This document shows, one piece after another, positions 11,281 through 17,454 of a stretch of DNA of 42,740 bases. The notes beneath the pieces were generated by a model. It was not told the DNA's origin. It saw only the letters and a list, made by a program, of their open reading frames with translations, and searched no databases. The stretch lies in the NCBI GenBank assembly GCA_964016885.1, contig CAXHJY010001546.1:1-42740 (forward strand), read 5' to 3'. The stretch comes from Eledone cirrhosa (lineage: Eukaryota). How positions within the stretch are numbered: position 1 is the first letter of the stretch; each line of letters opens with the position of its first letter. The translations under genes were made by a program, and so were the position numbers.

Positions 11281-11330
<50 letters not shown>
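10625..11330. repeat. (TA)n/(TACA) microsatellite
   Basis: Directly visible. Confidence 0.95.
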
Positions 11331-11336
<6 letters not shown>

Positions 11337-11376
11337 GATATTAAATAAATGGAAACTATATTTATAAAACCATATT

Positions 11377-11442
11377 TATTTCATTATATATATTTCAGGG
11401 ATATCATATTAACAATATGTTATGCCTTCATCAGACAAAATA
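11377..11442 (-). ncRNA. Hammerhead ribozyme (left arm of element 1)
   Basis: UAUUUUGU-CUGAUGA-AGGcAUAaCAUAUU guu AAUAUGaUAUcCCU-GAAA-U-AUAU-AUA|AUGAAAUA. Confidence 0.85.
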
Positions 11443-11458
11443 CAATATAAACATTTTG

Positions 11459-11519
11459 TATTTTGTCTGATGAAGGCATATTGTTAATATGATATCCCTG
11501 AAATATATATAATGAAATA
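11459..11519 (+). ncRNA. Hammerhead ribozyme (right arm of element 1)
   Basis: CTGATGA at 11467-11473, GAAA at 11500-11503, predicted cut after 11511. Stem I has 8 bp including two G-U pairs, and stem II carries a 5-nt deletion relative to the left arm. Confidence 0.8.
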
Positions 11520-11649
11520 AATATGGTTTTATAAATATAGTTTCCATTTATTTAATATCATAAATATACTCCAAATACTTGTTGAGTGCTTTTATATCAG
11601 TTATAAATATTTACTCGTTGTTAACCCAACAATTTAAATATAACTTTCC

Positions 11650-11690
<41 letters not shown>

Positions 11691-11693
11691 CAC

Positions 11694-11725
<32 letters not shown>

Positions 11726-11835
11726 TGGTAAACGGAATAGAAAATGCTGACAAATTGTTCACAGTGAAAAATAGTTTAATTAGGAATAAGTGAGAATTAG
11801 TAATTGTATTGGTTAGTATTCAGTTTTGGTTTTAA

Positions 11836-11873
11836 GTTTTACCGGTTGCGCATTTCTAATGCTTTTCAAAAAT
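11836..11873 (-). ncRNA. Hammerhead ribozyme, U3-A8 family, probably inactivated (GAAA to GCAA)
   Basis: uuu-UUGAAAA-GCAU uagaa AUGC-GCAA-C-CG-GUA|aaa. The upstream flank is homologous to 12135-12160. Confidence 0.6.
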
Positions 11874-11903
11874 AATTTTGAGATAGAGCGTCCGTGATGT
11901 TTG

Positions 11904-11960
<57 letters not shown>

Positions 11961-11961
11961 T

Positions 11962-12103
11962 ATGTAGGAGGTGAGTTTTATTGTAGTACAATAAAGCAAT
12001 GCAGATATCGGATAAGAAGCACTCTACAATTTGTAGGACTCGAGTATACATAATATATAAGATCAATACATAGAACTCTTTTAACCATCTATTGATCTTA
12101 TAT
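11962..12103 (+). mobile_element. Internally deleted relative of fold-back element 4
   Basis: Ends with ATACATAGAACTCTTTTAACCATCTATTGATCTTATAT, matching 17350-17387. It begins with ATGTAGGAGGTGAGTTTTATTGTAGTACAATAAAGCAATG, the reverse complement of 16558-16597. Confidence 0.7.
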
Positions 12104-12156
12104 ATTATATACATATATATATGTGAGAAAAACCACAGACCCTCCATCTCAACTCA

Positions 12157-12194
12157 CCTTTTGAAAAGCAGAAGAACTGCGAAACCGGTAAAGG
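12157..12194 (+). ncRNA. Minimal hammerhead ribozyme with U3-A8 core
   Basis: CCTT-TTGAAAA-GCAG aagaa CTGC-GAAA-C-CG-GTA|AAGG. Stems I and II are perfect 4-bp helices and stem III/loop is palindromic (ACCGGT). Confidence 0.75.
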
Positions 12195-12741
12195 AACCAA
12201 ATAAATATATATATTTTTTAAAAAAATAAGACTTCAGTTGCATTTTCGATTTCATCTCTTTTTCTTTATACTTTCACTCGTGTAGGATACCTTGGTTATT
12301 TTTCATTTTGTAAAAAAAACCTCACTTTCTAATACATATATATATATATATATATACATATATATATACATATATATATACACATATATATATACACATA
12401 TATATACACACATATATATACACATATATATACACATATATATACACACATATATACATATATACACATACATATATATACACATCTACATATATATATA
12501 TCCACATATACATATATATATATATATACATATATTTCGTTTCTGAATTTGTTTAGCAAGATTCTTTATCTGAAAACGTGTGTTGAAACCGATATTGTTA
12601 TACTTTGGGAGGGTCATGTTGCCAATAAGAAACACACGCACCAGCAGCTTTCACTTCAATTTATTATAATATATTTATAAATTTAGGAATTTATAAATTT
12701 CCGGTTGGTTGGTTCCACAACCAGACGATTGTTCATATATT

Positions 12742-12784
12742 GTCAAAGTTCTTTCGTCACACATTCTGTGACCTCTTCAGTGAC
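12742..12784 (-). ncRNA. Minimal hammerhead ribozyme
   Basis: GUCA-CUGAAGA-g-GUCACA gaaug UGUGAC-GAAA-G-AA-CUU|UGAC. There is one unpaired G at the base of stem II. Confidence 0.7.
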
Positions 12785-12864
12785 TGGGGATTCTTTTCTT
12801 TGTTTTTGTACCTCTCCTTTGTTCTGTCCTACGCCATCTTGTTTTTGTGTGTGTTGTGTGCTTC

Positions 12865-13070
12865 ATATATATATATATACAATATATATATATATATATA
12901 CACACATATATATATATACACACACATATATATATATATACACACACATATATATATACACACATATATATATATACACACACACATATATACACACACA
13001 CATATATACACACACAACATATATACACACACACATATATATATACACACATATATATATATATATACAC

Positions 13071-13103
<33 letters not shown>

Positions 13104-15056: not shown

Positions 15057-15209
15057 TACATATGTATATATATATATATTGATATATATATACATATGTA
15101 TATATATTTATATATGTATATATATATATATACATATATATATATACATATGTACATATATATATGTGTATATATATACATATGTATATATATATATATG
15201 TATATATAT

Positions 15210-15742
15210 GCCAGTTTAGTCGCCAACGTTTCTTGGTGAGGAGGGTGACTTTGGACAGCCTGCAGGACTAAAAACAAAACCTGTCAAAGGGCAAAGGAGC
15301 TCTTAAGAGTCAATGGCCATCCAAAATCACCGGGAGAGATGATCCCTTAGCCTTTGTCAAGGCAGAATTCTAGGAGAAGGAAAACTCTGATATAACACCT
15401 GCAACCCTGATAGTATCCAATGATGTTGACTTGTTCTTCTTTTTGGTAAATATCATATTGATTAAGAGAGTGGGACTGGCTTTGTGCAGTGCCTTTGCTC
15501 ACTATAAAAGCTTCACGGCACAGGCATTGCTTTATATCTGGAGATCTCTCTGCACTTGTCGTCACATGGTACCATGGGCCCAGCACTATGTGTCAATAAT
15601 TGTCACAAGTGTAGTGTTTGTACCAGAGTTTTCAAGTCGCTGGCTGAACTAAAAAGTCACACTCGTTCAGCGCATCGGTAGGAGTTCTCCTACATGGATA
15701 TAAAGTAGTGGCCATACTCGAAAACGAGTTGGCAGCCACCAT
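15210..15742 (+). mobile_element. Internally deleted RTE-like LINE (5' UTR joined to C-terminal zinc finger and 3' end)
   Basis: 15595-15681 reads [28 protein letters not shown] (C2H2). The motif CTAGGAGAAGGAAAACTCTGA near 15370 and the end CTCGAAAACGAG..CAGCCACCA resemble RTE termini as I recall them. Confidence 0.6.
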
Positions 15743-16009
15743 GTATATATATACATATGTATATATATATATATGCATATATATACATATGTATATATAT
15801 ATATGTATATATAGATATGTATACATATGTATAGATATGTATACATATGTATATATATATATATATATATGTATACATATGTATATATATATATATACAT
15901 ATGTATATATATATATATATGTATACATATGTATATATATATATATGTATACATATGTATATATATATATATATGTATACATATGTATATATATATATAT
16001 GTATACATA

Positions 16010-16346
16010 TCATCATCATCATCATCATCACCGTTTTACATCCGTTCTTCCACGCTAGCATGGGTTAGACGGGTTGTCCTGTTGTGGGCAGTGTCTGGTC
16101 GGCTGACCATGCCTTGCTCATACAGGAACTGATCTGGCTTGATTTCTACAGCTGGATGCCCTTCCTAACACCAACCTCATTTACAGTGAGTGCTGGGTGC
16201 TTTTTCGTGGCGCCTACACGTCCACTTTACAGTGTGGGCTGGGTGCTTTTTTGCCGTGGCACCTCCACGACCACCTTGCGGTGGGGGGAGTGGGGGCATA
16301 TTGTTTATATGCTTCAGCATGTACCCATGGGAGGTCGGGTACCCTG

Positions 16347-16347
<1 letters not shown>
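16010..16347 (-). mobile_element. Second subfamily of the (GAT)n-tailed retroelement
   Basis: (CAT)n followed by TTCCACGCTAGCATGGGTTAGACGGG...TTTCTACAGCTGGATGCCCTTCCTAACACCAACC, shared with 32311-32480. Confidence 0.8.
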
Positions 16348-16387
<40 letters not shown>

Positions 16388-16479
16388 GTATATATATATA
16401 TATATACACATATGTATATATATATATATATATACATATGTATATATATATATATTTGTGTATATATACATATGTGTAA

Positions 16480-16508
<29 letters not shown>

Positions 16509-16513
<5 letters not shown>

Positions 16514-16595
16514 AGAACAAAAGATGGTTAAAAGAGTTCCATGTATTTTATTATGCACATTGCTTTATTGTACTACAATAAAACTCACCTCCTAC

Positions 16596-16597
<2 letters not shown>
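16509..16597 (-). mobile_element. 89-bp two-ended deletion derivative of the element 4 family
   Basis: The first ~48 nt match 17053-17100 and the last ~40 nt are the reverse complement of 11962-12001. The HHR core is deleted. Confidence 0.7.
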
Positions 16598-16639
<42 letters not shown>

Positions 16640-16761
16640 CAAAAGGGATATTCAATTTGTTGGTAATTCAATAAATATAAATGTTTATAACTGATTCAGA
16701 GCCCTCGACAAGTTTTCTGGAGTATAATATTCAATGATATTAAATAAATGGAAACTATATT

Positions 16762-16822
16762 TATTCCATTATATATATTTCAAGAGTACCAAAACTTTGG
16801 TACGCTTTCATCAAATAAAATA
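16762..16822 (-). ncRNA. Hammerhead ribozyme (element 3 left arm; uncompensated C3U)
   Basis: The core reads UUGAUGA instead of CUGAUGA; otherwise it mirrors 16924-16984. Confidence 0.65.
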
Positions 16823-16923
16823 CAAAGTTTGTTTTATAAATATTGACATAACCAAGAAAAGATACCTTTGAACTGCTAAGCTATCTTTTCCTGGTTATGT
16901 CAATATTTATAAAACAAACTTTG

Positions 16924-16984
16924 TATTTTATCTGATGAAAGCGTACCAAAGTTTTGGTACCCTTGAAATATATATAATGGAATA
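16924..16984 (+). ncRNA. Hammerhead ribozyme (element 3 right arm)
   Basis: TATTTTAT-CTGATGA-AAGcGTACCAAA gt TTTGGTACcCTT-GAAA-T-ATAT-ATA|ATGGAATA. Predicted cut after 16976. Confidence 0.88.
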
Positions 16985-17087
16985 AATATAGTTTTATAAA
17001 TATAATTTCCATTTATTTAATATCATTGTATATGTATATATATATATATAATATATAAGATCAAAAGATGGTTAAAAGAGTTCCATG

Positions 17088-17158
17088 TATTTTATTATGC
17101 GCATTTCAAAAACAAATATCATCATACAATAACATTTGTGTTTTCATCAGATAAAATA
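17088..17158 (-). ncRNA. Hammerhead ribozyme (element 4 left arm)
   Basis: Exact mirror of 17282-17352. Confidence 0.88.
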
Positions 17159-17281
17159 GGAAGACATGATATGAAGGTTAAAAAACACTTGTGAATAGTG
17201 CAGTTTTAAATCAACATATGATATGTTGATTTAAAACTGCACTATTCACAAGTGTTTTTTAACCTTCATATCATGTCTTCC

Positions 17282-17352
17282 TATTTTATCTGATGAAAAC
17301 ACAAATGTTATTGTATGATGATATTTGTTTTTGAAATGCGCATAATAAAATA
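17282..17352 (+). ncRNA. Hammerhead ribozyme (element 4 right arm)
   Basis: TATTTTAT-CTGATGA-AAAcACAAATGTTATT gtat GATGATATTTGTtTTT-GAAA-T-GCGC-ATA|ATAAAATA. Stem I is a perfect 8 bp, loop 3 is palindromic, and the predicted cut is after 17344. Confidence 0.9.
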
Positions 17353-17382
17353 CATGGAACTCTTTTAACCATCTTTTGATCT

Positions 17383-17454
<72 letters not shown>

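Follow-up and report, generated by a model that had tools for sequence, protein, structure and literature searches.

Four palindromes with a hammerhead ribozyme motif in each arm lie within a few kilobases of one another in a contig of Eledone cirrhosa (assembly GCA_964016885.1, contig CAXHJY010001546.1), and they raise the question of whether the hairpin itself transposes or whether the inversion is made at each insertion. The window analysed is the whole stretch of 42,740 nucleotides from this contig. Alignment of the arms bore out the four palindromes reported in the first-pass annotation, E1 (11328-11568), E2 (14060-14352), E3 (16732-17028) and E4 (17053-17387), and all four are real. They fall into three sequence families as had been proposed, A (E1 and E3), B (E2) and C (E4), with ribozyme and tail motifs common to families A and C. 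Their parts are as follows.

11328-11445, minus strand: left arm of E1 (family A), tail-less; hammerhead core at 11434, cleavage at 11385; ends at site X against (TA)n
11446-11455, plus strand: centre of E1, 10 nt; slightly nearer the tail-bearing arm (alignment score 39 versus 32, a weak difference)
11456-11568, plus strand: right arm of E1; core at 11467, cleavage at 11511
11569-11650, plus strand: tail of E1, 82 nt, homologous to the E3 tail
14060-14184, minus strand: left arm of E2 (family B), tail-less; core at 14143; C-C mismatch interrupting stem I
14185-14227, no strand assigned: unpaired centre of E2, 43 nt
14228-14352, plus strand: right arm of E2; core at 14269, cleavage at 14300
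14353-14452, plus strand: tail of E2, about 100 nt
16638-16731, minus strand: tail of E3, 94 nt
16732-16864, minus strand: left arm of E3 (family A), tail-bearing; core at 16814 with C3U; 14-nt deletion
16865-16881, plus strand: centre of E3, 17 nt, continuing the tail-less right arm
16882-17028, plus strand: right arm of E3, tail-less; core at 16932, cleavage at 16976
17053-17219, minus strand: left arm of E4 (family C); core at 17150, cleavage at 17096; ends at X
17221-17387, plus strand: right arm of E4, same as the left arm; core at 17290, cleavage at 17344; no tail

The two arms of an insertion are nearly identical. Matches, substitutions and indels number 113, 0 and one of 5 nt in E1, and 123, 3 and one of 14 nt in E3; the E2 arms have 123 matches and 2 substitutions. 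In E4 the arms are identical at 167/167 positions around a centre of 1 nt, giving a perfect palindrome of 335 bp with TA flanks. Across the four insertions the two arms thus carry 0-3 substitutions over 113-167 nt, whereas comparison of E1 with E3 gives 17 over 106 nt. At 17126, both E4 arms carry a letter present in about 3% of the family. The one-sided tail of 80-100 nt described earlier for three elements was measured as 82 nt on the right of E1, 100 nt on the right of E2 and 94 nt on the left of E3; E4 has none.

A type I hammerhead motif reading outward is present in every arm of E1-E4, as had been claimed, but only six of the eight are intact. The damaged ones are the left arm of E3 (C3U) and the left arm of E2 (C-C mismatch at the second closing pair of stem I). 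Positions 11511, 14300, 16976 and 17344, marked earlier for the mapping of RNA ends, are the predicted H17 cleavage nucleotides. A descriptor scan of the window gave eight C3-G8 motifs, six of them within the palindromes, and 60 first-order Markov resamplings of the 30,913 non-microsatellite bases gave a mean of 0.0 and a maximum of 0. The U3-A8 core variant was also found in the window. In a covariation test on six related rows, from which the structure itself was drawn, 99% of cells were paired and 5/17 pairs showed two-sided change, a level reached in 0/500 shuffles. Families A and C have a self-complementary stem III; that of B is imperfect. Judged by their sequence, the predicted ribozymes are of the minimal type with palindromic stem III known from pLTRs. 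No hammerhead family appears among the Rfam matches listed (150 of 307). MicroRNA identity was rejected; the Rfam microRNA models listed, two of them on the E3 and E4 centres, all fell below gathering scores.

Two stubs of family C had been missed in the first-pass annotation, and the window also holds a single-arm copy of family A.

10456-10627, plus strand: single-arm copy of family A; core at 10523; ends at X, with no tail and no inverted arm
11965-12108, minus strand: S12, stub of family C with palindrome arms of only 19 nt
16507-16596, plus strand: S16, stub of family C whose two parts do not overlap and so form no palindrome

S12 is built of a tail-less inverted end (12065-12108), a 4-nt microhomology and then a direct end with the full 87-nt tail. 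In S16 an inverted end (16507-16561) is followed by a 4-nt microhomology and the last 39-40 nt of the tail, which matches the S12 tail at 35/35 positions. A long tail-less arm meets a short tail piece in S12, S16 and several read joints. The idea that arms stop at the cleavage site is not supported: S12 and two joints do begin just 4-5 nt beyond it, but most copies reach 50-120 nt upstream.

The outer ends are fixed. One end, X, lies 43-57 nt beyond the cleavage site and the other, Y, is the end of the tail; both abut (TA)n. Tail-less ends coincide in 3/3 copies of family A and 4/4 of family C, and 34 contigs of sample X1 depart from the reference at 16727 into (TA)n. The position of Y is the same in S12 and S16, and E1 and E3 agree within about 3 nt. 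A TA-rich microsatellite lies on both sides of 7/7 listed copies, in a window that is 25% microsatellite as a whole. X itself sits in an AT-alternating stretch resembling the target. In E2 there is a possible 15-nt target-site duplication that is not distinguishable from the repeat, and (TA)n flanks hide duplications generally.

The hairpin itself does not transpose, because the centres differ between copies while the outer ends stay fixed. Within the window, E1 and E3 differ in family A, and E4, S12 and S16 in family C. At least six family A read joints are unlike E3's own centre (among 15 of 28 joints listed); contig joints rest on sides of only 20-37 nt, at 85% likeness, and some could be spurious. 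Six joint rows at 16764-16765, which coincide with E3's private 14-nt deletion, were left out, as were the substitution counts of run X4 (kind unrecorded), and joint 16730-16897 was not scored as lying in the tail, since the letters between its sides prolong the arm. Read joints 16671, 16674 and 16679 connect part of a tail with a long arm of the opposite orientation. Past the E4 centre, family C runs on in non-palindromic form in 20 X1 contigs, 254 X8 reads and one X5 contig, and 257 X8 reads exit the E4 arm at 17219 into letters resembling the family C tail end. Summed depth, which is not copy number, is about 1e6 on the arms versus 5e3 at the E3 centre in X1, and about 500 versus 5 beyond the E4 centre in X8. 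Two samples (in their contigs) and a third (in its raw reads) contain head-to-head joints of these families. In E3, S12 and S16 it is the tail-less arm that supplies the centre; for E3, a contig of another copy has similar letters upstream of 16888. Microhomology of 4 nt was seen in two of three judgeable junctions (chance 0.03 each), and the E4 junction has only about 1 nt.

The palindromes are likely to be short end stubs of Penelope-like elements (PLEs), each a pLTR with a minimal hammerhead, placed head to head and joined anew at every insertion. The first-pass annotation had offered very short PLE insertions with the inversion made each time as one of two origins, and the variable centres and fixed outer ends back it. 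The PLE traits found are a minimal type I hammerhead in a terminal repeat, a head-to-head inverted and 5'-truncated copy of variable length, an optional tail at one end with fixed boundaries, and an AT-rich or microsatellite target. Inverted truncated pLTRs, the one-sided tail and (TA)n bias are described for PLE insertions (PMC8557442), and PMC4209133 (2014) attributes opposite-strand minimal hammerheads 100-700 bp apart to truncated PLEs. Membership rests on anatomy, since no RT or GIY-YIG partner is linked to any family, which counts against the PLE account, as do tails of 82-100 nt against the published 30-40 nt. Pfam gave no RT or GIY-YIG match in the six frames of the window, a 35-aa frame that covers the family C tail matched nothing, and a metagenome scan with a family C 21-mer returned 0 matches. 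The sole metagenome match to the family A pattern was set aside as chance, being a coding-like contig without hammerhead stems. The element is to be annotated as ordinary PLE debris and not as a MITE, a microRNA or a new ribozyme class. Its architecture is already published, and its interest lies in the mechanism.

Each stub was probably assembled at insertion from two reverse-transcribed pieces set head to head in (TA)n. A PLE RT/GIY-YIG protein, supplied in trans, would nick both strands of an AT-rich target. Each target 3' end would prime reverse transcription at a fixed internal RNA site, either X (no tail) or Y (tail), and both cDNAs would halt after about 40-250 nt, their inner ends then being joined, often via microhomology. 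Priming at X and Y would give the one-tailed palindromes (E1-E3), and priming twice at X the tail-less palindrome (E4). A single priming would account for the single-arm copy (10456), and cDNAs that stay short for the non-overlapping stubs (S16). The ribozymes would be an inheritance from the pLTR. PMC11167929 describes a PLE protein that cuts and extends both target strands and begins synthesis at two internal RNA sites, which bound the tail.

The junctions suggest separate priming on both target strands rather than fold-back, because a long tail-less arm joins a short tail piece by 4-nt microhomology, once without overlap; later deletion is possible. Template switching, the route named in the first-pass annotation, is one way to such an inversion, but two priming events fit the junctions better. 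The alternative is the same PLE origin with inversion by fold-back self-priming of one antisense strand, as modelled in PMC3846280, with subsequent deletion within the unstable palindrome giving asymmetric centres and non-overlapping stubs. Near-identical arms and the rare letter at 17126 in both E4 arms are what self-copying predicts, so two primings would have to share a single RNA, or draw on RNAs from a single source copy. The E1 centre fits the tail-bearing arm, weakly. Microhomology-mediated deletion, reported in PMC3846280, is compatible with the junction microhomology and could itself yield asymmetric, non-overlapping junctions within a palindrome; the same paper argues for self-priming from palindromes at inverted junctions. 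Fold-back, however, cannot by itself produce a shorter arm that bears the tail (E3, S12), nor parts that fail to overlap (S16 and the three read joints into the tail). It needs deletion in at least 3/6 inverted window copies, little-diverged ones such as S16 included, and leaves unexplained why the copied arm halts at the same X that ends single-arm copies (10456). E4 is a perfect, undeleted palindrome whose 1-nt centre offers no fold-back primer. Self-priming is regarded as the less likely route.

It is improbable that the stubs represent the ends not of an autonomous PLE but of a non-coding RNA resembling a retrozyme or SINE and moved by a PLE protein. Neither the Pfam search of the window frames nor the family C tail frame yielded a coding partner, and non-LTR retrozymes, described as non-autonomous PLE derivatives, are likewise non-coding with type I hammerheads (10.64898/2026.07.22.740005). 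Retrozymes, however, form head-to-tail tandems of hammerhead units, none of which occurs in the window, whereas the units here are head to head with variable centres, and their ribozymes are of the type described for pLTRs. A retrozyme-like origin would leave the insertion mechanism unchanged.

The other origin offered earlier, a non-autonomous hairpin element of a class of its own, either RNA or MITE-like DNA, that moves as an intact palindrome, is very improbable and largely refuted. A perfect palindrome at TA flanks is what E4 presents, and of the X8 reads that extend to 17219-17221 roughly half depart from the family sequence at 17219, which may be a preferred inner end. Yet centres are not shared, depth collapses at or past them (X1 at E3, X8 past E4), and single-arm and non-overlapping copies exist. 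A MITE would have matching fixed ends and one interior common to all copies, and would not need the covarying hammerhead stems; the ends here are asymmetric, with the tail on one side. Fold-back artefacts of sequencing or assembly are most improbable: no single read or contig spans the entire stretch and the E4 arms are identical around 1 nt, but in each of E1-E3 substitutions or indels set the two arms apart, the outer ends lie at a family-fixed site and the head-to-head joints recur across three samples.

In L1 twin priming, each of the two target strands primes on its own and microhomology unites the cDNAs, leaving an inverted part; the products are without overlap. In the stubs described here the two parts usually overlap, giving palindromes, and the second site is fixed. 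Canonical hammerhead-bearing EN+ PLEs (Penelope/Poseidon, Neptune, Nematis; PMC8557442, PMC3846280, PMC2377424) share with them a head-to-head inverted repeat of variable length, a tail on one end only, strong 5' truncation, simple AT-rich targets and microhomology junctions; unlike these, the stubs have no ORF between their ends, besides the longer tails. Minimal metazoan PLE hammerheads, in the available text of PMC4209133, show the same conserved core, short or palindromic stem III, opposite-strand spacing and U3-A8 variant; palindrome junctions and tails are not analysed in that text. PAc, an Anolis Poseidon studied in vitro, resembles the proposed scheme in its two fixed internal RT start sites delimiting the tail and in cleavage and extension of both strands of an AT-rich target (PMC11167929, available text). 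PAc priming needs no target homology, whereas X here resembles the target, and the result is not applied in that text to explain inversions.

The origin of PLE inverted structures has been described as undefined (PMC8557442), and no title proposing twin priming for PLEs was met in the literature searched, mostly at title level and outside subscription papers. The stubs could well constitute a genome-wide record of twin target-primed reverse transcription from two fixed RNA sites with end-joined cDNAs. If so, one rule would cover inverted pLTRs, the one-sided tail and tail-less palindromes of PLEs, and the self-priming model would be replaced. Very abundant and very short copies hold both ends and the junction in one read, so that copies favouring one model or the other can be tallied.

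The competition between self-cleavage and long dsRNA formation envisaged in the first-pass annotation is predicted to be one-sided. Whichever side read-through transcription comes from, the antisense copy is made before the ribozyme, and forcing the ribozyme fold is predicted to cost 64-95 kcal/mol relative to the long duplex. Ribozymes in read-through RNA would be zipped into a duplex of 113-167 bp and would not cleave. If transcribed, the stubs would be a large source of long dsRNA; on the twin-priming reading, one host genome would carry very many ready-made dsRNA hairpins of 110-170 bp with their ribozymes silenced.

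Self-comparison of the window, which is AT-rich, animal-type DNA, octopus-like in appearance, with 25% microsatellite (10,568/42,740 bases masked), bore out both the four palindromes described in the first-pass annotation and their one-sided tails. These are real palindromic elements, of families A, B and C. Two short family C stubs, S12 and S16, were absent from that annotation, although both lie within the interval it covered.

Ribozyme-bearing palindromes and related copies (centre, unpaired middle)
11328-11568, both strands: E1, family A; arms with 0 substitutions and one 5-nt indel, centre 10 nt, tail 82 nt
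14060-14352, both strands: E2, family B; 2 substitutions, centre 43 nt, tail 100 nt
16732-17028, both strands: E3, family A; 3 substitutions and one 14-nt indel, centre 17 nt, tail 94 nt
17053-17387, both strands: E4, family C; 0 substitutions in 167, centre 1 nt
11965-12108: S12, family C; inverted end joined to direct end plus 87-nt tail
16507-16596: S16, family C; inverted end fused to the final 40 nt of the family C tail, no overlap
10456-10627: single-arm family A copy

Family C thus possesses a tail, since S12 carries one, although E4 does not. Within each family all tail-less ends coincide at a fixed site, X, 43-57 nt beyond the cleavage site, and tails terminate at a single site, Y. 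Immediately beyond X, the tails of families A and C (11569-11600, 16700-16731, 12010-12052) have a motif and a predicted small hairpin in common, which may signal where RT starts.

Each arm holds an outward type I hammerhead motif, as had been proposed; those in E3 left (C3U) and E2 left (a stem I mismatch) are not intact. A descriptor scan picked up C3-G8 motifs at 8 places in the window, 6 of them within E1-E4; resampling 30,913 bases 60 times gave none. The intact letter is present in 132/151 reads of the public run X8 that cover the E3 left position, so the E3 change looks like decay after insertion. Across six aligned ribozymes of families A and C, 99% of cells pair (0/500 shuffles reach this value) and 5/17 pairs are altered on both sides; because the rows are mutually related and also supplied the structure, the result counts as support and not as a probability. 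In both families stem III is a self-complementary octamer with compensated changes, the form expected for dimer cleavage according to PMC4209133.

Four public runs, among them X1 and X5 (contigs) and X8 (raw reads), were matched to 16638-17240 at 85% likeness. Organism A gave 9,870 and 564 contigs (two samples) and 28,008 raw reads (a third), and organism B 16 contigs; none of the matched records spans the whole interval. X was confirmed by 34 X1 contigs in which family A sequence gives way to (TA)n at 16727. Beyond the E4 centre, family C runs on non-palindromically in 20 X1 contigs, 254 X8 reads and 1 X5 contig. Head-to-head joints of opposite-strand arms numbered 28, of which 15 were listed; 12 of those listed are in family A, and 6 of the 12 were removed as coinciding with E3's own deletion. 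The inner ends of the remaining 6 differ, and in 3 of these a piece of tail is linked to a long opposite arm. Joint sides in contigs are 20-37 nt, which makes individual rows weak; the overall pattern is consistent. Fixed outer and variable inner ends mean that the palindrome arises at insertion rather than moving as a unit. The comparison of centres suggested earlier was answered by variable centres, not a shared one; of the two original readings, short truncated insertions of Penelope-like elements (PLEs) is supported and a dedicated hairpin class is not supported.

In X8, 257 reads exit the E4 arm at 17219, and what follows resembles the end of the family C tail (agreement 0.6; the RAD loci may be few). 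Of the X8 reads that extend to the E4 centre (17219-17221), about half part from the family sequence at 17219, maybe at few loci; cDNA synthesis may preferentially stop there, or the RNA 5' end may lie there.

The palindromes work like PLE insertions on every feature open to testing; for the defining RT/GIY-YIG link, Pfam gave no RT or GIY-YIG hit in the six frames of the window, and a 35-aa frame over the family C tail gave no hit either. PMC8557442 names among PLE features inverted truncated terminal repeats (pLTRs), a tail of 30-40 bp on one side and a bias towards (TA)n; tails here are 82-100 nt. In 2014, minimal hammerheads lying 100-700 bp apart on opposite strands were ascribed to truncated PLEs (PMC4209133). 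Relative to the PLE papers compared, the differences are the tail length of 82-100 nt and the evidence from junctions; PMC6765202 and PMC6962438 served as background only. That the palindromes are ends of autonomous PLEs, all routes taken together, is highly probable.

Two priming events probably explain them. According to PMC11167929, a purified PLE protein cuts an AT-rich target on both strands, extends both, and begins reverse transcription at two internal sites in the RNA, which set the limits of the tail. Applied here, each target strand would be primed at X or Y, and both cDNAs would stop early and be connected through their inner ends. A single rule would then yield the X+Y and X+X forms as well as the single-arm and non-overlapping ones, all four of which are observed. 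Junction microhomology is 4 nt in S12 and in S16 (chance about 0.03 each) and about 1 nt in E4, the three junctions judged. Because the pLTR holds the promoter (PMC2377424), run-off at the RNA 5' end may possibly account for the short cDNAs. No twin-priming account of PLE inversions was found by title in the largely open-access literature searched. The published alternative, self-priming on an antisense template (PMC3846280), here with later deletions, is less likely: it accounts for the near-identical arms and for the letter at 17126, carried by both E4 arms and about 3% of the family, but E3, S12, S16 and the joints with tail fragments would need a subsequent deletion. The elements fitted neither a MITE nor a retrozyme (the latter described in 10.64898/2026.07.22.740005).

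As both ribozymes read outward, the antisense copy would come first in a read-through transcript from either side. Predicted palindrome hairpins amount to -155 to -263 kcal/mol, and isolated ribozymes to about -5 to -11 kcal/mol. The proposed competition between cleavage and dsRNA is predicted to be one-sided, forcing the ribozyme fold costing 64-95 kcal/mol. Self-cleavage is thus predicted only for transcripts begun within the centre.

Several other stubs and repeats were seen.

Other features of the window
9337-9368 (+): hammerhead-like remnant with self-complementary stem III, interrupted by (TA)n immediately after the putative cleavage site
11725-11922 (-) and 12126-12331 (+): related outward-facing stubs (77% over 65 nt) flanking S12, with a U3-A8 hammerhead core variant, intact at 12161 and without GAAA in the other; these are two insertions or, alternatively, an old palindrome that later insertions separated
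12535-12863 (-): minimal hammerhead stub with a single arm, belonging to another family; core 12780, then about 210 nt; microsatellites on both sides
13477-13966 (-): open frame similar to a LINE ORF at its 3' end; no Pfam match
40194-41027 (-): two adjacent frames similar to a broken Tc1/mariner transposase; only weak HTH matches below the Pfam cut-off
14639-15053, 16011-16344, 32313-32746: SINE-like repeat with a (GAT)n end, present three times (75-80% similarity among copies)
25585-29723, 30959-31407, 34762-37765: tandem arrays whose repeat units measure about 59-60, 25 and 45 bp

A dispersed repeat at 30379-30411 includes a stretch that matches the 45-bp unit.
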